This document shows, piece after piece, positions 3,933-46,433 of a stretch of DNA of 57,457 bases (positions are counted from its first letter, which is position 1; every line of letters starts with the position of its first letter). Source of the stretch: Candidatus Nanoarchaeia archaeon. GTDB taxonomy: Archaea; Nanobdellota; Nanobdellia; Woesearchaeales; GW2011-AR9. Below the pieces are notes generated by a model. That model did no database searches, was not told the DNA's origin, and saw nothing but the letters and a program-made list of their open reading frames with translations. Location: contig DATDWB010000048.1 of the NCBI GenBank assembly GCA_035289845.1, positions 1 to 57,457 on the forward strand, read 5' to 3'. Both the position numbers and the translations under genes were made by a program.

Positions 3933-4850
3933 TTATTTCTTCCTAATAGTATAAAATATCTCGTTGGGAAATTCTAATAACTTATACTCATACCCTAATC
4001 TTTTTACCATCAACTCAATCCATCTTCTACGCGGGTAATTCATTCTCTGCCCGCTCATAGTCAAGGTAGGAAAACTTACCACTACCCATTTACAATCCAG
4101 TGATTTAATCAGCTGTTCCGATTTTTTATGCCCTCGGCCTTGATCTAAAATATCAGTCATTTTGAACAAAAAAACTACCTCCACCTTAGGAAAAGATTTT
4201 TCCTGGGTTATATCCGCCGCTTGGGCTAATCCCCTAATTTTAGATTTTTTTTGTAGAAGAGTAAAAAATTTATTTAACAACTCTACTTCCACATTACTTA
4301 AGTCGTAAGCATAATACTCCATTGAACTTAACCCCATCAATGGAATAGAAAATGGGTTTATTCCACACCCCAAATCTAGAATTTTAAGTGGTTTACCAGA
4401 CATTTCCCATAATTGTCCATATAATTTAGGATAAAAATCTAATCTTTCTTTAGTTGAAGAATGAGCGGATAAAATATTGTTTAATCTTTCAGACTTTTTC
4501 AGCAGAGGTGATTTAAGGTAAGATTCTACCAAGTGGGACAACAAGGGTGATTTTCTTTCCTTCCTGAACAACCCGTAAACCCGCCTCAACCTAGACCGAA
4601 CTTCTTTAACTGTCTGTTTATATACTGCTGAGCGGGGATTAAACAACCCCTGAACCAAATTAGGGTTCTTATCCAGATAGCGTTCTAAAGTCTGCTGCAC
4701 ATAAATTGGATTTACTGAATTAAGCTCCCGCTTTTTTTTAACTGCTAAAATTAGTTCCTTTAATTGACCTGGGTCCAAATTAAATTTATTTGGTTTAAGC
4801 CTGGATTTAAGAATATCAGATTTAGTCCAATTTAATTTTCCCGGCATCAA
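3933..4850 (-). CDS. FmrO/ArmA/Rmt-like SAM-dependent 16S rRNA (guanine1405-N7) methyltransferase homologue
   Basis: Collinear motifs resemble remembered ArmA: HSSTKERL (ArmA HSSTNERV), ILDLGCGINPFS (ILDFGCGFNPLA), YYAYDL (YHAYDI), VVFLFKM (VVFLLKM), VVSFPTLTMSGQ (VISFPIKSLSGK), NEIFYTI (NELVYIT). Confidence 0.65.
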   Translation of the reverse strand: MMPGKLNWTKSDILKSRLKPNKFNLDPGQLKELILAVKKKRELNSVNPIYVQQTLERYLDKNPNLVQGLFNPRSAVYKQTVKEVRSRLRRVYGLFRKERKSPLLSHLVESYLKSPLLKKSERLNNILSAHSSTKERLDFYPKLYGQLWEMSGKPLKILDLGCGINPFSIPLMGLSSMEYYAYDLSNVEVELLNKFFTLLQKKSKIRGLAQAADITQEKSFPKVEVVFLFKMTDILDQGRGHKKSEQLIKSLDCKWVVVSFPTLTMSGQRMNYPRRRWIELMVKRLGYEYKLLEFPNEIFYTIRKK

Positions 4851-25208: not shown

Positions 25209-25805
25209 CTACACATCACAATAATATTGTTTAAGTTCCTTACGCGCCCTATGAACTCTTGATGAAACTGTGCCAATTGGTATCTGCTCCATTTCCGCAA
25301 TATCCTCATAGTTATAACCCTCCATTACTAAGATAATCGCCCTCTTAAAAGGGTTATTATCTGGGAATATCAAATCTAAATCTTTGTATACTTCTTCAGC
25401 TTCCATAGCCAATCCAACTATTTGTTCCGGAGTATAATTATGACAGCCGCCCTGACCAATACGTTCCATCGCCGGAAGTAAATTATTATGATCAAACTTA
25501 GGTTTAGAAATATCTAACGGAGTGTTATTGCTGCCCTGGTTGCTTCTCTTACGCATATAATTTACAGTAGTGTTATGAGCTATGCAATACACCCATTTTC
25601 TAAAATCAGTTCCTGGTTTGAACTGGTCTCTGACTTTAGCCGCAACTTTCTCAAACACATCTTGAGCCAAATCTTCCGCCAGAATAGTGTCGCCTAGCAC
25701 TAAAGTTGAAATATATCGCCTTATCCCAGTAAAGTATTGTTTATATATTTCAGTAAAAGATCTTAATTCTCCTAGATCATTTATTTCTATCTCTAAAGGC
25801 CGCAT
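25209..25805 (-). CDS. Sigma-70 family (ECF-like) RNA polymerase sigma factor homologue, paralogue 1
   Basis: Region 2: AEDLAQDVFEKVAAKV...FRKWVYCIAHNTTVNYMRKRS. Region 4.2 HTH: MEGYNYEDIAEMEQIPIGTVSSRVHRARKELKQ. Confidence 0.8.
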   Translation of the reverse strand: MRPLEIEINDLGELRSFTEIYKQYFTGIRRYISTLVLGDTILAEDLAQDVFEKVAAKVRDQFKPGTDFRKWVYCIAHNTTVNYMRKRSNQGSNNTPLDISKPKFDHNNLLPAMERIGQGGCHNYTPEQIVGLAMEAEEVYKDLDLIFPDNNPFKRAIILVMEGYNYEDIAEMEQIPIGTVSSRVHRARKELKQYYCDV

Positions 25806-25861: not shown

Positions 25862-26551
25862 TTAACTTAATCTAGTTAAATCTATTCCTGAGTCTTTTAT
25901 TATCTTACGCCCCCGATGCAGCCTGAGCAATACAGCATTCCGAGAAATGTTCATCAGTTCAGCAATTTCCTGGCAAGTATAACCCTGCAGCTCTAATTCT
26001 AGAGGTTCAACATAATCTTCCCAAGAACAACTTTTATAGGTACGGTCCTTAAAAATTGAATATATTCTAGAATTAAGCCGCTCTGCTTCCATTTTTTCCC
26101 CAACTAATTCTTCCGGGTTTTGATTATCTCTACTAGAATAACCAAGATTTTCTAAGTCCTGGACAAAATTATAATTATCTTGGATTAAACCGCTGAAGTT
26201 ATAATTTGACCCATTAGCTGTATAGATTGTATCAAAACTAATATTATTATAACCGAGGTTGGATTTTTTACGCATATAAACAATTACTGCGTTCCTAGCA
26301 ATCTTATAGACCCAACCTTTAAAATTTGTTCCAGGGGTGAATTTTTCTTCAGCCTTAGTCAAAACTTTAACAAAAACTTCTTGAGTTAAATCTTCAGCTA
26401 CAGCTTCGTTATCCCAATTAGTTAATCTTAAGATATACTTATTTATATCAGAATAATATTCCCTATAAACTTCTGTAAAAGTTTTTACCGTGCCCAGGTT
26501 ATTTATTTTCAATTCATCTTCTAGGCCCCTAGAGACTAACTTCGTAACCAT
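25862..26551 (-). CDS. Sigma-70 family (ECF-like) RNA polymerase sigma factor homologue, paralogue 2
   Basis: Region 2: AEDLTQEVFVKVLTKA...FKGWVYKIARNAVIVYMRKKS. Region 4.2: LQGYTCQEIAELMNISRNAVLLRLHRGRKIIKD. Start set at ATG 26551 because a TATA box overlaps the track start at 26572. Confidence 0.8.
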   Translation of the reverse strand: MVTKLVSRGLEDELKINNLGTVKTFTEVYREYYSDINKYILRLTNWDNEAVAEDLTQEVFVKVLTKAEEKFTPGTNFKGWVYKIARNAVIVYMRKKSNLGYNNISFDTIYTANGSNYNFSGLIQDNYNFVQDLENLGYSSRDNQNPEELVGEKMEAERLNSRIYSIFKDRTYKSCSWEDYVEPLELELQGYTCQEIAELMNISRNAVLLRLHRGRKIIKDSGIDLTRLS

Positions 26552-26571
26552 AAGCCTAAATTTATAAACCA

Positions 26572-26580
26572 TTTTATAAA
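26572..26580 (-). promoter_or_regulatory. Archaeal TATA box (TTTATAAAA) about 25 nt upstream of ATG 26551 of sigma-like paralogue 2
   Basis: The minus strand reads acatttataaaATGgtttataaatttaggcttATG. The geometry mirrors paralogue 1. Confidence 0.45.
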
Positions 26581-36679: not shown

Positions 36680-36704
36680 GCCATACATAGGTTGGTACAT
36701 CTTA
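36680..36704. repeat. 23S processing-stem half (3' flank), perfectly complementary to 39782-39806
   Basis: gccatacataggttggtacatctta is the exact reverse complement of taagatgtaccaacctatgtatggc at 39782-39806 (25 bp). Confidence 0.85.
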
Positions 36705-36705
36705 A

Positions 36706-39745
<3,040 letters not shown>

Positions 39746-39917: not shown

Positions 39918-40032
39918 TGGACCCGTCGGGATTTGAACCCGAGACCCCCTGCTTTCTATGACGTTAACTAATCTTTCACGTTCTTTTTTTAACGCATGCA
40001 AGGCAGGTGCTCTCCCACTGAGCTACGGGCCC
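39918..40032 (-). tRNA. tRNA-Ala (anticodon UGC) with a 43-nt intron at the canonical 37/38 position, in the 16S-23S spacer
   Basis: The reverse complement reads GGGCCCG-TA-GCTC-AGTGGGA-GAGC-A-CCTGC-CTTGCA[43 nt]A-GCAGG-GGGTC-TCGGG-TTCAAAT-CCCGA-CGGGTCC-A. The G3:U70 Ala identity pair is present. Confidence 0.85.
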
Positions 40033-40906
40033 AGTAGAGTTTTTCTAACATTCCTTCTAAAAATGCTGGTTGTTAGTTTTATTCTTGCTGTTTTTCTTAT
40101 ATTCTCTTATCTTCCATTCATCTTTAGGAATAAATTCCCACAGATCCTATGAAAATATGAAAAAAAGGAGGTGATCCAGCCGTAGGTTCCCCTACGGCTA
40201 CCTTGTGACGACTTAACCCACCTCACCAAATCTGGGTTTGATACAACTAAAAGCTGGATCTCACCCAAACCCAACTCGGTTGGTTTGACGGGCGGTGTGT
40301 GCAAAGAGCAGGGACATATTCACCGGACCGTGATGAAGTCCGATTACTAGGAATTCCGTTGTCATGAGGGCGAATTACAGCCATCAATCTAAACTAAGAT
40401 AAGGTTTAGAGGTTTAGCTTCGCCTTTCGGCGTTGCAGCCCATTGTCCTTACCATTGTTGCGCGCGTGTAGCCCAGCAGATTCGGAGCATACAGACCTAC
40501 CGTGGCCCAAACCTTCCTCCCTGTTTCCAGGGCAGTCTCCATAAGGTGCGCAGTCATCCTAAAGGACCTGCTTGCAATTATGGATATGGGTCTCGCTCGT
40601 TACCTCACTTAAGAGGACACCTTACGGCACGAGCTGACGACGGCCATGCACTACCTCTCGGCTCGTTAGGTAAGACCTTTAACCTGACCTTCATTCTGCC
40701 GTCGCTGCTGGTGAGATTCTCTGCGTAGAGTTAGATTAAACCGCACGCCGCACTCCTTGTGGTGCTCTCCCGCCAATTCCTTTAAGTTTCAGCCTTGCGA
40801 CCGTACTTCCCAGGCGGTGAACTTAATACCTTCGCGTCGACACTGCGTATCCACGAAGAATACACAACATCTAGTTCACAGCGTTTACAGCTAGGACTAC
40901 TCGGGT

Positions 40907-41001
40907 CTTTAACTGGGTTAATGTCTTTGATTATTTTTCGATTTTTGTTTAGTATTTTTTTATTGAACAAACCAACAAAAACCATAAGCAAAAACCCCAG
41001 A
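40907..41001 (-). other. 95-nt AT-rich insertion (putative intron or expansion) in the 790 loop (helix 24) of 16S rRNA
   Basis: The RNA sense strand reads GGAUUAGAU[95 nt]ACCCGAGUAGUCC, whereas the universal sequence is GGAUUAGAUACCC.GGUAGUCC. The insert ends can pair (CUGGGGUU / AACCCAG). Confidence 0.75.
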
Positions 41002-41096
41002 ATCTAATCCGGTTTGCTCCCCTAGCTTTCGTCCCTCACCGTCAGACCCGTTCTCGTTAGGCGCCTTCGCCACAGGTGGTCCTCCGGAGATTATAG

Positions 41097-41138
41097 CACT
41101 GTAAAAGTGCCAGACACTTTTAGTATGCCTGACAACAT
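41097..41138 (-). other. About 42-nt insertion in the 690 loop (helix 23) of 16S rRNA
   Basis: The RNA sense strand reads GCGGUAAAAU[~42 nt]CUAUAAUCUCCGGAGGACCACCUGUGGCGAAGGCG, whereas archaeal 16S normally reads GGUGAAAUCCUAUAAUC.... The insert contains a perfect 7-bp hairpin AAAAGUG-UCUGG-CACUUUU. Confidence 0.65.
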
Positions 41139-41911
41139 ATTTTACCGCTCCCTCCGGAATACCCCTAACGCCTCCCGGTCCCTAGACAAACAGTATCTCA
41201 AGCACGCCGTTTTGTTAAGCGCAACGATTTCACCCAAGACTTTTTTATCCGGCTACGAACGCTTTAGGCCCAATAAATGTGATTGCCACTTGTGGCGCAG
41301 GTGTTACCGCGGCGGCTGGCACCCGTCTTACCCACCACTTATTCGCCAAGCTATTTACACTTGACAAAAGCCCATGCAATGCATGAGCACTAGGAGTTCC
41401 CTTATCGCACTTGCGTACATTGTAAAGTTTTCGCGCCTGCTGCACCCCGTAGGGCTAGGGCCAGTGTCTCAGTGCCCTTCTCCGGGCTACCTCTTTCAAG
41501 GCCCGTACTGATCAATGGCTTGGTAGTCCGTTACACTACCAACTACCTAATCAGCCGCCAACTCATCCTTAGGCATTGCTTTTGAGCAAAAGAACATTCC
41601 AGTATAATTTACTTATCCGGATTTAAGCCCAGTTTCCCAGGGTTATTCCGGACCTAAGGGCAGATTATTGACGTGTTACTGAGCATTCAGCCTGTGTCTC
41701 CGAAGAGACCCTCCGACTTGCATGGCTTAATCGAACTCCCATAGCAGCAATCTCCCGCAGGATCAACGGGAATTGTTTAACGATCCTGTATTTGTATGGT
41801 CATAAAGCTGTACTTATTAGAATTTATCGTCCAAAATATTTTTGGATCACCCTATTCACACTCAAGGTTAATTGAGCATACATTTTGTTTATACTTTGAG
41901 AAAGTAAGTTA

Positions 41912-42231: not shown

Positions 42232-42455
42232 ATTTTTCAATGGAGAAGGGAGTATTTTATAAAGGTATCGAAAATTCTGTTGAATTTTTGGGTGTCTAGG
42301 TTAATTGGATTTTTGGGACCTCCCCAAAACTTTGTTTTTGCTAGGTATTGGAGATTAGGTGAATTAACAGAAGACTTAGAAGCCTTTTCCCAAGCAATGC
42401 TAAATAAAAAAATTGGCTACACCATTAAAACAAAATTAGGAAGTAATACTTTACC

Positions 42456-43163
42456 TTAATCACTTCCCTTCTCAAAATTTACCTCGTCATCGATCTCGAA
42501 TGATTCGGCAACTTTACCAAAGCACGGATGAAAGTCTTTTGCACACTCTAGTTTTGGTTTTGGTATGACCCTAATAGCGTTATTTTTATTGACCACAAAG
42601 CGCCAACCACCGGGTGTTTCAGGATGGTCTTTCAGGAAATCATAGAGTTCATATCCTAATTGTTCCATAAGTCCAGCAGAGCGATTTGGATCAAGGTTAA
42701 GATAAAGGTAGAAAGTTTCCTGCACTGACGCTGCTAAAATATAATCCGCGGTGATAACAACAGCAGCAGAAGCGTTTATATTATTTAATCCCTTAGAGTA
42801 ATTCGCCAGTGCCGCATAGATTTGTCTGCCAAATTTTTTTCGCTCATAATCAGGGATTGGTTGACGTTGTGGTTCTGAAGAAGTGTCTGCATCGTGGGCA
42901 TCGAAACCAAAATGTTTCGTCATGTCTTCTAAAAGTGATTCGTGTTGTTGCACATCTTCAACAGAAAATTTTGGTTCTTCTGATTGTACTACCGCTTGAT
43001 GGTATAAATCCATGACTCCTGGACTAGGCAGGTACCAGCTCTCGGCAATCCATTCTAAAAACTGTAGACTATTCATAGAAAAAAATAGATTTTGGGAGAG
43101 ATAATAAGTTTTGTGTTCTGAAAGGCAGTTTTTGAAAGAAAGAGCAATCTTTAAATAAACCAA
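42456..43163 (-). CDS. Hypothetical protein (235 aa; the start may be the internal Met at MNSLQFLEW)
   Basis: ORF track only; acidic central region. Confidence 0.4.
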   Translation of the reverse strand: MVYLKIALSFKNCLSEHKTYYLSQNLFFSMNSLQFLEWIAESWYLPSPGVMDLYHQAVVQSEEPKFSVEDVQQHESLLEDMTKHFGFDAHDADTSSEPQRQPIPDYERKKFGRQIYAALANYSKGLNNINASAAVVITADYILAASVQETFYLYLNLDPNRSAGLMEQLGYELYDFLKDHPETPGGWRFVVNKNNAIRVIPKPKLECAKDFHPCFGKVAESFEIDDEVNFEKGSD

Positions 43164-43178
43164 TTAGGTTCTCAATTT

Positions 43179-44882
43179 ATGGATTTCGACCAATTAATAA
43201 CCCTCTTTGAAAAGCTGGAAAAAACTTCCTCCGGCAACAGTCTGCGGGAAATCCTAGCTGAATTTTGGAAAGAAATCCCAGTCGAGGATATTGCCAAGAT
43301 TTCTTACCTCACTCTAGGACAAATAGCTTCCCAGTATGAAGACGTGGTATTGGGAATGGCCGAAAAAATGGTGGAAAAAGCTATTGCCGCCGCTTCCGGG
43401 ATGGAAGCTGCTAAAGTGCGCCAGATTTTACAGCAAGAAGGCGACATTGGTTTGGCTGCGGAAAAAATATTGCACCAAAAACCCCGCACTTTAATTCCGG
43501 TGGGAAAATTAACTGTCCCAGAACTATTTAACAAATTACATAAAATTGCCGCTATGTCCGGAAGCGGATCTCAAGATCAAAAAATAAATTTGGTAGTCGC
43601 TATGCTGCAAAAATGTTCTCCCACTGGAGCAAAGTATCTTTCCCGGATTGTACTAGGAACGCTGCGCCTAGGAGTAGGAGACATGACTGTATTAGATTCT
43701 TTAGCCCTGGCTTATACTGGAGACAAGAAAAATAAAGTGGAGTTGGAAGCAGCATATAATATCTGCCCCGATGTTGGGGTCATTGCCGAAACAGTTGCTA
43801 GAAAAGGATTGAAAGGATTAGCCAAAATTGAAGTTCACGTCGGCCGTCCAATTAAGATGATGCTGGCCCAAAGGGTAAAGCTATTGGAAGATCTGCCTAA
43901 AAAAATGCCGGGAAAAATTGCCGTCGAAGGAAAATATGATGGAGAGAGAGTTCAGGCGCACAAGGATAAGAAAGGCAAAATTACCCTCTTTTCCCGTCGA
44001 TTAGATGACATCACCCAACAGTTTCCAGACCTAGTCAAGTATCTAGAAAAACAGATCAAAGCTAAGGAATATGTAGTGGAAGGAGAAATTGTAGCAATAG
44101 ACTCTAAAGGTAAATTGCTTCCCTTCCAGACTTTAATGCAGCGGCGGAGGAAGCATGATATTGAAGAGTACATTAAAAAAATTCCAATCCAAATTAAGAT
44201 TTTTGATGCCTTGTACCTTAATGGCAAATCTTTACTAAAACAACCGTATGAAAAACGCTGTGCCCAATTGGAAAAAGTAATGTCTAAAAGCGAGCAGGTA
44301 GTAATGGCTGAGAAAATAGTAACAGACGATATTGAAAAAATCGACCAATTTTTTAAACAGAAATTGAAAGAAGGCGAGGAGGGAATTATTGCTAAATCTT
44401 TAAGCGGCGAATATCAGGCCGGAACTAGAGGCTGGAACTGGATTAAATGGAAAAAAGATTACGCTCAAGAGATGGTAGACACCTTTGATCTGGTAGTTGT
44501 CGGCGCCTATTACGGCCGAGGCCGGCGCAGCGGAACGTATGGCGCTTTGTTATGCGCTGCCTATAATGATATAGAAGATTCCTTTGAAACGGTTTGTAAA
44601 CTTGGTACCGGGATGACTGATGAAATTTTAGAAGAATTGCCCCGCTTGTTGAAGAAGTATAAAGTGGAGAAGAAGCCCGCCCGAGTGAAGGTTAAGAAAG
44701 AAATGGAACCGGAAGTGTGGTTCGAACCTAAAGTGGTGGTGGAAGTATTGGCTGCTGAAATAACCACTAGCCCATTTCATACCTTGGGATTAGCTTTACG
44801 TTTTCCCCGGTTTATTAAATTACGAGAGGACAAGAAAGCGGAGCAGGCTACCACAAGTGAAGAATTCAGGGAGATGAAGTGA
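43179..44882 (+). CDS. lig: ATP-dependent DNA ligase
   Basis: Motif I VEGKYDGERVQAH, EGIIAKS, WIKWKKDY, and the C-terminal OB domain LRFPRFIKLREDK. Confidence 0.95.
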   Translation: MDFDQLITLFEKLEKTSSGNSLREILAEFWKEIPVEDIAKISYLTLGQIASQYEDVVLGMAEKMVEKAIAAASGMEAAKVRQILQQEGDIGLAAEKILHQKPRTLIPVGKLTVPELFNKLHKIAAMSGSGSQDQKINLVVAMLQKCSPTGAKYLSRIVLGTLRLGVGDMTVLDSLALAYTGDKKNKVELEAAYNICPDVGVIAETVARKGLKGLAKIEVHVGRPIKMMLAQRVKLLEDLPKKMPGKIAVEGKYDGERVQAHKDKKGKITLFSRRLDDITQQFPDLVKYLEKQIKAKEYVVEGEIVAIDSKGKLLPFQTLMQRRRKHDIEEYIKKIPIQIKIFDALYLNGKSLLKQPYEKRCAQLEKVMSKSEQVVMAEKIVTDDIEKIDQFFKQKLKEGEEGIIAKSLSGEYQAGTRGWNWIKWKKDYAQEMVDTFDLVVVGAYYGRGRRSGTYGALLCAAYNDIEDSFETVCKLGTGMTDEILEELPRLLKKYKVEKKPARVKVKKEMEPEVWFEPKVVVEVLAAEITTSPFHTLGLALRFPRFIKLREDKKAEQATTSEEFREMK

Positions 44883-44941
44883 TTAATTTTTAAAAAAATG
44901 TTGAAAAATATTCCAAGATAAAATAGTAAATCCAACTAATT

Positions 44942-45256
44942 TTAGTGCACCATCTTAAACCCGCGATAAAAAGCAATAGCCTTAAGGCATATCTCTTTAG
45001 CCTGCTCTAGTTTGGGCTGAAAAACGGCATATAATTCAAGATTGTACTCTCCAACACGGAATTCAAACTTCTCAATAAATTTTAAGGTAGATTCGGAGTT
45101 GGGGAGAAATTTATTTTTAAATTCTAGTCCCACCATTGGATTTTGGTTTAATATTTGCTCAAAAGATTTAGCCAAGCCCAATTCACCCTCCACTCTGCCG
45201 GCAGCCAGTAAAGCCGCCCCATAATCGTCTATTATTTTTTTCTCTGTTCGATCCAT
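44942..45256 (-). CDS. Hypothetical protein (104 aa)
   Basis: ORF track only. Confidence 0.35.
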   Translation of the reverse strand: MDRTEKKIIDDYGAALLAAGRVEGELGLAKSFEQILNQNPMVGLEFKNKFLPNSESTLKFIEKFEFRVGEYNLELYAVFQPKLEQAKEICLKAIAFYRGFKMVH

Positions 45257-45280
45257 TCTTATTTAGGATAAGTGAATAGT

Positions 45281-45880
45281 TTATAATAATTTTTGTTTTG
45301 GACCAATAACTAAACTAACAATTACCCTGTTTTTGGTTCCTGCAAAGTTATTGAGATACTTAACAAATCCTTTTATACCGCTTCGCTTTACGATAGTCAG
45401 GGTATTTGGTTTTAAGGGTATAGGAAAATAATTTCCTTTTCCATCCACATAAATAACTGATCCCCCCCAAGAAGTATCCCAACCCTCAGTGCAATCCAAG
45501 ATCAGGTCATAAGTATTATCCCTGTTTTTAGAATCATTGAGGATAGTATAATCCCGCCCGGAAAAGGAATAAGCTGCTGCCGTAACCGATTTAACCGATT
45601 TTCTCACGACCCCAGAAATGAATTCTAAAATGGATTTAGTGTTGAAGAGTTTAGTTAAAGCCGGAGACTTTCCAACAGAATAAGAATGGGTCAGAGGATT
45701 TTTTTCCGGCTTAAATTTTAATTGGTGTAGTTCTTGTTTAATTTTTGCATAATCCTGCACAGAGAAAAAATCATGCAAGGTAACTTGAAAAAAGGTACTA
45801 CCACTAGAGACCTCAGTTTTAGATTTATCAAACGAAGCCTTTACCAGTTCTAATTTAGACCAATAAGCTTTATTTACCAT
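45281..45880 (-). CDS. OGFOD1/Tpa1/Ofd1 C-terminal (non-catalytic DSBH) domain-like protein
   Basis: RDYTILNDS...DLILDCTEGWDTSWGGSVIYVD...PLKPNTLTIVKRSGIKGFVKYLNN parallels the Ofd1_CTDD pattern (G.YtLl.D...W....GG..Yi...P..N.L.LV.rd....FvkYvn). Confidence 0.55.
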   Translation of the reverse strand: MVNKAYWSKLELVKASFDKSKTEVSSGSTFFQVTLHDFFSVQDYAKIKQELHQLKFKPEKNPLTHSYSVGKSPALTKLFNTKSILEFISGVVRKSVKSVTAAAYSFSGRDYTILNDSKNRDNTYDLILDCTEGWDTSWGGSVIYVDGKGNYFPIPLKPNTLTIVKRSGIKGFVKYLNNFAGTKNRVIVSLVIGPKQKLL

Positions 45881-46433
45881 GAAACCACCCGCTTAAAGCA
45901 ATCCGTAATTTGCCAGTTAATACTTCTTCTACTTCATGAAAAGATTTAGAAGTAACTTTAAAGATAACCAACCGATTAAATTGAGGTTGAATTCTTTCAG
46001 ATACCTCAGTAGGATTATTATTCTTAGAGTTATACAACGCCAATGCTCCACCTTCGGTATTATTTAAGGTGGAAAGATAATAAATAAAAGCCAACTTCCG
46101 TCCCTCCAATTGATCATCATGGGGCAGAAGATGATGGGTATTGCAGTACTTGGTTCCAGAAATATCAACGCTTCCCAATTTAATTCCAGTTCCAGTCACC
46201 GATTCTAATTTTTTAGCAAAAACTGTAGAAAAAAAAGTTACAAATTCCTGAATAACATTATTTTCAGTGGTTTTAAGATCGTTAGTCTGGAAGAAAGTAA
46301 ACAAATCCGAATCCTTAAGATCAAAAATTTCTTTAGAAAGTGCTGTAAGGAGTTGAACTGCTTTTTTTTCCGGCAGAAAATTATCAAACTTCCAATGAGG
46401 AAAGGGTTTACTAAAAAAGACAAACTTATCCAT
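45870..46433 (-). CDS. 2OG-Fe(II) oxygenase, OGFOD1/Tpa1/Ofd1-type prolyl hydroxylase catalytic domain
   Basis: HHLLPHDDQLEGRKLAFIYYLS (HxD), GGALALY, FNRLVIFKVTSKSFHEVEEV (distal His), RIALSGWFHG. Confidence 0.7.
   Translation of the reverse strand: MDKFVFFSKPFPHWKFDNFLPEKKAVQLLTALSKEIFDLKDSDLFTFFQTNDLKTTENNVIQEFVTFFSTVFAKKLESVTGTGIKLGSVDISGTKYCNTHHLLPHDDQLEGRKLAFIYYLSTLNNTEGGALALYNSKNNNPTEVSERIQPQFNRLVIFKVTSKSFHEVEEVLTGKLRIALSGWFHGK

Follow-up and report, generated by a model that had tools for sequence, protein, structure and literature searches.

Two putative bulge-helix-bulge mini-introns in the 690 and 790 loops of the 16S rRNA gene of a Woesearchaeales-like archaeon

The 690 and 790 loops of 16S ribosomal RNA (rRNA) serve transfer RNA (tRNA) binding and contacts with the large subunit. 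In a contig of 57,457 nt from a Candidatus Nanoarchaeia archaeon (DATDWB010000048.1, assembly GCA_035289845.1; the whole stretch is called the window below), the 16S rRNA gene carries an extra segment in each of these loops, which raises the question of whether the segments are spliced out of the precursor, kept in the mature ribosome, cut out of an RNA that is then left in pieces, or not genuine at all. Our analysis makes it very probable that both are archaeal mini-introns of pre-16S rRNA, free of open reading frames (ORFs) and bounded by bulge-helix-bulge (BHB) motifs, which would be cut by the tRNA-splicing endonuclease EndA and whose exons would be joined by the ligase RtcB. The initial annotation of this DNA had likewise preferred spliced introns to retained expansions; this preference is now supported by near-canonical BHB motifs, by cuts that restore the consensus and by covariation across dozens of DPANN genomes.

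We placed the inserts with the Rfam SSU_rRNA_archaea covariance model, run on the whole gene and then on positions 40780-41260 alone. The gene is as follows:

40166-41773, minus strand: 16S rRNA gene, 1608 nt (Rfam RF01959, SSU_rRNA_archaea, 1374.8 bits, model positions 1-1478)

Within 40780-41260 the model required only two large inserts, in the same two loops as annotated from the sequence: 'GGAUUAGAU*[97 vs 2]*CCGAG', a net gain of 95 nt, and 'GCGGUAAA*[42 vs 1]*UGCUAU', a net gain of 41 nt. Counted along the E. coli sequence, their sites are:

40907-41001, minus strand: putative intron 1, 95 nt, guanine-plus-cytosine (GC) content about 0.27, no ORF; between U793 and A794, 790 loop of helix 24
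41099-41139, minus strand: putative intron 2, 41 nt; between A696 and U697, 690 loop of helix 23

The coordinates originally given for the 95-nt insert proved exact by the covariance model, by the BHB scan described below and by the joints of metatranscriptome contigs, which omit precisely 40907-41001. The 690-loop insert is also present; its extent, put at about 42 nt (41097-41138), had to be corrected to 41 nt at 41099-41139. Because a U is common to both ends, 41098-41138 is equally valid, and the second contig joint omits 41 nt with a 1-nt ambiguity. Removal of both inserts leaves a 16S rRNA of 1472 nt, as had been estimated, from a full gene of 1608 rather than 1609 nt, and the loops of the spliced gene are identical to those of intronless relatives. 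The longer insert is indeed AT-rich, with a GC content of 0.28 in the 97-nt segment of the alignment against 0.50 in the 16S gene; the values are 0.38 in the 42-nt segment and 0.37 in the window.

We also considered what else the inserts might contain. Neither holds an ORF of its own, as previously stated: all ORFs that overlap them extend into the exons, and protein cargo was rejected on this ground. No Rfam intron family reached its gathering threshold anywhere in the window, and a permissive Rfam scan of the 95-nt insert gave nothing better than E = 1.1. The ribozyme core typically exceeds 200 nt in group I introns and 400 nt in group II introns. Self-splicing introns of either group were rejected, since 95 and 41 nt are too short and no Rfam intron family was found. 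A C/D-box small RNA (sRNA) inside the 95-nt intron was rejected as well: motifs resembling CUGA/AUGAUA were seen by eye in some relatives, not in the window, and no Rfam family matched such an sRNA cargo.

An archaeal BHB consists of two 3-nt bulges on opposite strands with 4 base pairs (bp) between them, each bulge being cut after its second nucleotide. We scored all candidate cut-site pairs around each loop for this geometry. In this unbiased scan the top hit at the 790 loop was ...CGG A [UUAG] (AU/U) CUGGG ... CCCAG [UUAA] (AG/A) C CCG..., where square brackets enclose the central helix, round brackets the bulges and a slash marks the predicted cut. It has four of four central pairs and a 5-bp helix B, and is the sole candidate that restores GGAUUAGAUACCC, the product being GGAUUAGAU^ACCCGAG, the universal sequence. 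The pairing of the insert's ends that had been spotted by inspection, CUGGG/CCCAG, is real and constitutes helix B. The elements of this motif are:

41004-41007, minus strand: intron 1 central helix, exon strand U788-U789-A790-G791, pairing with intron positions 40909-40912 (UUAA)
41001-41003, minus strand: intron 1 5' splice-site bulge, A792 and U793 plus the first intron U; predicted cut after U793 (41002)
40996-41000, minus strand: intron 1 helix B, 5' strand CUGGG, pairing with 40913-40917 (CCCAG); inward of it GUUUUUG:CAAAGAC
40906-40908, minus strand: intron 1 3' splice-site bulge, A and G plus A794, then the A787·C795 mismatch

Beyond A787·C795 the native 790 stem continues with G786:C796, G785:C797 and C784:G798. 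At the 690 loop a single 41-nt candidate restores the loop, ...GC G [GUAA] (AA/U) A·GU... ...AC·U [UUAC] (AG/U) GC..., again with four of four central pairs. It gives GCGGUAAAA^UGC (GCGGUAAAA^UGCUAU), and intronless relatives read GCGGUAAAAUGC at this loop, exactly the predicted spliced sequence. Its elements are:

41142-41145, minus strand: intron 2 central helix, exon strand G691-U692-A693-A694, pairing with intron positions 41101-41104 (UUAC)
41139-41141 (AA/U) and 41098-41100 (AG/U), minus strand: intron 2 bulges, from the BHB scan and the fold
41105-41138, minus strand: intron 2 stem-loop, helix B with A:U, U·U, G:C and U:A, then a 9-bp hairpin GUCAGGCAU/GUGUCUGGC

The perfect 7-bp hairpin noticed earlier in this insert, AAAAGUG/CACUUUU, does exist in the sequence, but the minimum-free-energy (MFE) fold and a relative both favour the competing 9-bp stem, and the shorter hairpin is probably not the biologically relevant fold. 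The relative is L259, a JGI contig with the same flanking stem (16S about 91.5%) and a near-identical 41-nt intron in the 690 loop; its inner hairpin differs from that of the host by compensatory changes of C:G to U:A and G:C to A:U, which argues for the longer stem. Folded without constraint, helix 23 with its insert forms a coaxial helix-bulge-helix-bulge-helix rod as the MFE structure (z-score -3.86). In the full helix context, the folds constrained to the BHB lie 3.0 (790) and 3.5 (690) kcal/mol above the MFE.

Both junctions, at which the initial annotation could not draw a canonical motif by eye, thus fold into a near-canonical, or relaxed, BHB. They share the layout of a tRNA anticodon loop with an intron at 37/38: the intron interrupts a terminal hairpin loop towards its 3' side, and the outer helices are the native rRNA stem on one side and the intron folded on itself on the other. 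Each insert shows two of the features that mark an archaeal BHB intron, a removal that restores the consensus of a conserved structural-RNA gene and a BHB at its junctions.

In both motifs, four bases of the exon loop (GUAA 691-694, UUAG 788-791) pair with four close to the 3' end of the respective intron (UUAC, UUAA), which makes up the central helix. The first bulge consists of the two exon nucleotides that follow and the first intron nucleotide, the second of the last two intron nucleotides together with the first nucleotide of the 3' exon. In the mechanism that we propose, EndA would cut each bulge after its second nucleotide, RtcB would seal the exons to the normal loops GCGGUAAAA^UGC and GGAUUAGAU^ACCC, and the intron would be set free, probably in circular form. 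Because both loops serve tRNA binding and large-subunit contacts, a 30S precursor that still contains the introns is expected to be inactive.

We analysed whether the predicted structures are maintained in other genomes. The search for 790 inserts, in one genome per GTDB species, used a pattern of exon bases only (GGATTAGAT-N70-100-ACCCNNGTAGTCC) and returned 50 loci. About 44 of these are archaeal, with 70-100 nt inserted at U793/A794, and come from Woesearchaeota, Nanoarchaeota, Micrarchaeota and Aenigmarchaeota as well as from a few genomes labelled Thermoplasmata or mislabelled; the remaining six hits, bacterial or artefactual, are N-containing duplications or chance matches and have no helix B. 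All 44 archaeal inserts read [UUAG]...[CUAA, UUAA, CUGA or AUAA]; the complement always stops exactly 2 nt short of the 3' junction, and the bulges are of 3 nt, the one on the 5' side being the same in every archaeal homologue. The sequence of helix B varies by lineage (UCGAG/CUCGA, CUGGG/CCCAG, GACCC/GGGUC, UUAUGAAGAA/UUCUUCAUAA and others). In a gap-free alignment of the junction with 43 distinct sequences, 92.8% of the cells were paired, compared with 72.3% in shuffles. The central helix, whose intron strand lies outside the search pattern, was paired in 99.4% of cells. All five pairs of helix B change on both sides and 95.3% of its cells are paired; 111 double-change cells were counted at 790 where 27 were expected, and pairing fell to 24-53% when the 3' partners were displaced by one to three columns.

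The 690 intron was sought with the pattern GGTAAAAY, TTACANT plus downstream exon bases; these hits, together with other retrieved loci, gave 20 archaeal genomes at species level, drawn from the same four DPANN groups, with introns of 36-51 nt. Seven of the eight helix-B pairs covary among the 20 sequences. On average 6.0 of the 8 helix-B pairs form in the archaeal sequences; in 75 bacterial sequences that fit this pattern by chance the mean is 3.24 of 8 (p = 1e-8).

These homologues bear on two simpler explanations of the inserts. One is that they arose as an assembly or chimera artefact, or mark an rRNA pseudogene. In the public soil/groundwater metagenome X25 the genome reaches a depth of about 16.6x, without a single mismatch over 42400-46400, and the DNA runs X25 and X26 both contain it (0.98 of words). 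In X25 an independent 153-nt DNA contig spans the entire 95-nt insert and both flanks with one difference, at a depth of 26, near the 16.6 of the genome. The 41-nt insert (41100-41134) is absent from the Logan contigs of X25, X26 and X27, in which intronless junctions of commoner relatives are present, and an artefact could appeal to this gap. Our guess is that the gap results from bubble-popping against the abundant intronless relatives; it is a warning that contig-level resources can lose short rRNA introns when the organism is rare. However, homologous 690 inserts occur in 20 independent assemblies, which rules out an artefact of assembly, and homologous inserts are found at both sites in dozens of independent assemblies. 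The gene is, moreover, full-length, with the score given above, and belongs to an intact 16S-tRNA-Ala-23S operon. We consider an artefact or a pseudogene scarcely credible.

The other explanation is retention: the mature ribosome would keep both inserts as expansion segments extending outward from the 30S platform at the 690 and 790 loops. Both inserts do fold as rod-like hairpins stacked on the native stems, and no RNA run from the source samples of the host was found. Retention, however, requires no pairing of exon loops with intron 3' ends, no 3-nt bulges set 4 bp apart and no cuts that restore the consensus, and these BHB features are conserved across phyla. Retained expansion segments occur in peripheral, variable helices and leave the functional centres undisturbed; membership of that class is disfavoured here because the inserts sit in universally conserved functional loops. 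Nucleotides G693-A696 and A790-A794 contact tRNA, initiation factor 3 (IF3) and the 50S subunit, and a retained insert would displace or bury them. In addition, close relatives manage without the inserts, and no RNA contig of the 95-nt insert was found in five groundwater metatranscriptomes (X16 and X33-X36) at 90-97% likeness. Retention is therefore highly improbable.

We examined public metatranscriptomes for signs of splicing. In X33, X34, X35 and X37 nearly all exon bins were covered at at least 99% likeness and the intron bin was at zero (X37 was compared at 99% likeness only). The groundwater metatranscriptomes X33-X37 contain 0.33-0.41 of the 16S words, in contigs that are unitigs of about 40-130 nt. 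Joints that omit the 95 and the 41 nt are present in metatranscriptome contigs; the same joined forms exist in the DNA of intronless relatives, and we therefore give these joints no weight as signs of splicing. In the metatranscriptome X16, one 60-nt contig (depth 52) matches the ligated 690 junction of the host at every position and includes the CCGGAG/CUCCGG flanking stem, which is variable between species. The 31-nt core of this ligated junction is absent from 241 million JGI metagenome contigs and from 257 retrieved loci, and the JGI contigs that have the same 690 flanks carry the 41-nt intron in three cases of three. For a relative with both introns, L029, the DNA runs X21 and X22 contain a contig that spans the 690 intron and the RNA run X16 contains none; this contrast is suggestive only, because the RNA contigs differ from L029 at three positions.

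Several observations weigh against the splicing of both inserts as introns. We found no RNA run from the host's source samples among public runs and for this reason infer, rather than observe, intron removal in the host. The host genome was undetectable in the DNA runs paired with X16, so that the ligated-junction contig there is attributed to another bearer of the same flanks. Ligated-looking 790 junctions are not diagnostic, because they are also found in the DNA of intronless relatives. The GUAA/UUAC helix is present in all 20 members of the 690 set, yet the search pattern demanded it, and its invariance is therefore not independent evidence. Nor are the 3' sides of the motifs strictly canonical: at 790 the A787·C795 mismatch stands beside the bulge, and at 690 G690 lies opposite the bulge or pairs with U697, leaving a bulge of 2 nt. 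Furthermore, in the 690 intron of the host the second helix-B pair is U·U and the central helix can alternatively be drawn with 6 bp, and Pfam scans found neither EndA nor RtcB encoded in the 57-kb window. Apart from these points, cofolding of the 16S flanks for a BHB processing stem, intended as a positive control, gave no clear stem.

It is also conceivable that the inserts are cut at the BHB bulges and that the exons are not religated. The product would be a 16S rRNA in three fragments, of about 634, 97 and 741 nt, that stay associated through base pairing, akin to the rRNAs with bacterial intervening sequences or to other fragmented rRNAs. The BHB evidence concerns cleavage only, ligation being deduced from the established knowledge that archaea encode RtcB, and the short Logan RNA contigs are not assignable to the host. 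The X16 contig, however, is RNA that crosses the ligated 690 junction with exactly the flanks of the host, and this junction is absent from the DNA collections searched. To our knowledge, every archaeal BHB intron studied in rRNA or tRNA is religated (compare PMC4496867), and we know of no archaeal precedent for a free 97-nt platform fragment. We regard fragmentation as very unlikely.

Spliced BHB mini-introns, the reading that we prefer, have well-described counterparts. BHB introns of 16S rRNA are known in Thermoproteales, Desulfurococcales and Aigarchaeota, and 13 loci have been catalogued: 374, 548, 722, 781, 803, 901, 908, 919, 978, 1093, 1205, 1213 and 1391 (Jay and Inskeep 2015, PMC4496867). 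Like the inserts described here, those introns occupy highly conserved 16S regions and universal primer sites, have a BHB at the junction, often lack an ORF and are patchily distributed. Unlike them, they frequently exceed 700 nt and can code for homing endonucleases, and their loci do not include 696 or 793; the host introns measure 41 and 95 nt, belong to a DPANN archaeon of cold groundwater and are located inside terminal hairpin loops. The closer structural parallel is the pre-tRNA intron at 37/38. There, too, the native stem is one outer helix and the intron hairpin the other, four loop nucleotides pair with the 3' end of the intron, the 3-nt bulges are cut after their second nucleotide, and EndA and RtcB are presumably the same enzymes. 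The differences are that the RNA is an rRNA and that the loops have 6 and 9 nt instead of 7, which accounts for the extra G690 or the A787·C795 mismatch beside the 3' bulge.

Among DPANN archaea, BHB introns have been reported in rRNA genes alongside group I introns (Nawrocki et al. 2018, PMC6125680), and 'intron-containing 16S rRNA genes' have been cited in passing as a reason why primers miss lineages (He et al. 2021, PMC7906910). In the Micrarchaeota ARM-1 and ARMAN-2, ORF-bearing 16S inserts of about 500 nt have been described, that of ARM-1 being 522 bp at position 1093; their splicing was stated to be unknown, and 16S insertions were stated to have been reported only in Crenarchaeota, Aigarchaeota and Micrarchaeota (Sakai et al. 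2022, PMC8784108). Introns and insertions in rRNA genes of DPANN archaea and of the bacterial candidate phyla radiation (CPR) are also noted in PMC11270868; the CPR insertions, unlike those of the host, are bacterial and not BHB introns. In the literature searched, which covered rRNA introns in Woese-, Pace-, Aenigm- and Nanoarchaeota and the 790 loop, with subscription journals thinly represented, we found no account of the 696 and 793 loci, their BHB or their spread. The proposed mechanism is a known one; what is added is two loci beyond the 13-site catalogue, built on the plan of the tRNA anticodon loop and widespread but patchy in DPANN archaea, in which 696 and 793 appear to be characteristic 16S intron sites.

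The introns might have a function of their own. Instead of selfish relics that are simply tolerated, they could be a selected licensing device that holds the 30S platform inactive until EndA and RtcB act: with the 690 and 790 nucleotides sequestered in the BHB central helices, tRNA, IF3 and the 50S subunit would not bind. If this were true, maturation of the small subunit would be coupled to the tRNA-splicing machinery in DPANN archaea. The recurrence of the sites across DPANN phyla, the lack of a homing-endonuclease ORF, the co-occurrence of the 690 and 790 introns and an intron identity of 55-75% against about 86-91% for exons are compatible with such a role and do not prove it; we consider it unlikely.

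We compared the host with its relatives for presence or absence of the introns, as had been suggested. The best 16S matches are metagenome-assembled genomes of Woesearchaeota/Nanoarchaeota. No match exceeds 91.7% identity among GTDB species representatives, so the host, judged from its sequence, is an undescribed Woesearchaeales-like DPANN archaeon. Its closest species representative, L143 (91.7%), has neither intron. The 690 intron alone is found in L259, the 790 intron alone in L035, L012, L016, L025 and L031, and both in L029, L032, L033, L258 and L260. Among genomes with the CCCGAG-type (Woesearchaeota) 790 stem, 31 at species level have an intron of 70-100 nt and at least 120 have none; 790 introns of up to 121 nt were also seen. 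Of 44 genomes with a 790 intron, 7 also have the 690 intron; of 113 without a 790 intron, none does. These counts are uncorrected for phylogeny. The 95-nt intron of the host is 55-75% identical to its counterparts in the clade, with internal motifs and a second stem in common, in lineages whose exons are about 86-91% identical. This clear homology within the host's clade points to vertical inheritance for some time. The introns are thus inherited within lineages and gained or lost sporadically, and their patchy presence among close relatives looks, from these sequences, like the behaviour of introns.

The comparison also revealed unusual carriers and other inserts. L029 (MGJB01000004.1, 5691 nt) is binned as Candidatus Yanofskybacteria, a member of the CPR, and has an archaeal 16S gene of Woesearchaeota type with both introns, the 790 intron being 75% identical to that of the host; this contig looks mis-binned. 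Several loci labelled 'uncultured Methanosarcinales' also have a 16S of Woesearchaeota type. In L163 (Candidatus Thorarchaeota, SHMX01000002.1) a different insert of about 30 nt is found in the 690 loop (GGGUGAAAU-UCUCGCCACCUUUUGUGGCGAUAGCACA-UUCUAAUGAUC), and there is none at 790. BLAST matches to the spliced 16S break in L017, L103 and L004, at about 852, 1029 and 1345 of the spliced gene, which points to further 16S inserts at other loci.

The position of the introns has practical consequences. Intron 1 lies inside the primer target that it had been said to split: it divides the site 787-806 used by 806R, 785F and 805R in standard V4 and V3-V4 surveys, so that carrier lineages would be unamplifiable or mis-sized. 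Studies of the global distribution of Woesearchaeota rest on 515F/806R amplicons (PMC8421398). Such introns should be anticipated in any pipeline that removes or disregards inserts or that uses 16S for binning, as the CPR-labelled bin of L029 illustrates. More generally, the gene can accommodate introns even in two functional loops that rank among the ribosome's most conserved, if the loop bases can build a BHB, and the 690 and 790 junctions are clean, naturally occurring substrates on which the specificity range of DPANN splicing endonucleases could be tested.

The remaining genes of the rRNA operon, identified by an Rfam search, follow the 16S gene on the minus strand in the order tRNA-Ala(UGC), 23S:

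39918-40032, minus strand: tRNA-Ala(UGC) in the 16S-23S spacer, 115 nt (Rfam tRNA, 59.1 bits)
36696-39731, minus strand: 23S rRNA gene, without insertion (Rfam RF02540, 2520.3 bits)

The tRNA-Ala(UGC) gene, which was not called at 39918-40032 by ARAGORN, contains an intron of about 42-43 nt after position 37. Folding and the BHB scan showed the correct BHB spacing, with only two of four central pairs (CUUG versus AUAG). This intron is likely to be a further substrate of the splicing endonuclease within the same operon; the motif is a relaxed one, and an endonuclease of broad specificity would be needed to cut it. DPANN EndA proteins have an extra loop that has been tied to a broad substrate range and to many disrupted tRNA genes (PMC5829648, PMC3239211), and such an enzyme would fit both the weak tRNA-Ala BHB and the relaxed 3' sides of the 16S motifs.

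The 23S gene of the window has no query-specific gaps relative to 88 related loci. Many of these DPANN loci carry inserts of 255-790 nt at the equivalent of 23S position 1960/1961 in the numbering of the window gene (L008, L017, L023, L103, L130, L176, L196, L206, L226, L230, L231, L244 and L249). This is probably the group I intron site LSU/1931 reported by Nawrocki et al. 2018; we estimated the match to E. coli position 1931.

Genes in the neighbourhood of the operon, identified by Pfam scans, include those for FtsZ, GINS, an ATP-dependent DNA ligase, deoxyhypusine synthase, an Rpo7-like protein, SufB/SufS and RIO-type kinases, and the gene set of the window is that of a typical small-genome archaeon. 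Three further ORFs stand out:

25209-25805 and 25862-26572, both minus strand: pair of adjacent sigma-like ORFs, 198 and 236 aa, with Sigma70_r2 and Sigma70_r4_2 (E = 1e-10 to 1e-12)
3933-4850, minus strand: ORF matching FmrO-type 16S rRNA methyltransferases (Pfam PF07091, E = 5e-22)

The pair resembles bacterial sigma factors of the extracytoplasmic function type on a contig that is otherwise archaeal. Archaea do not use sigma factors, and the pair is unexpected here; the two ORFs may reflect horizontal acquisition or a repurposed DNA-binding protein. The FmrO-type match is unusual for a DPANN archaeon, the PF07091 family being one that we take to belong to aminoglycoside producers and resistance genes.

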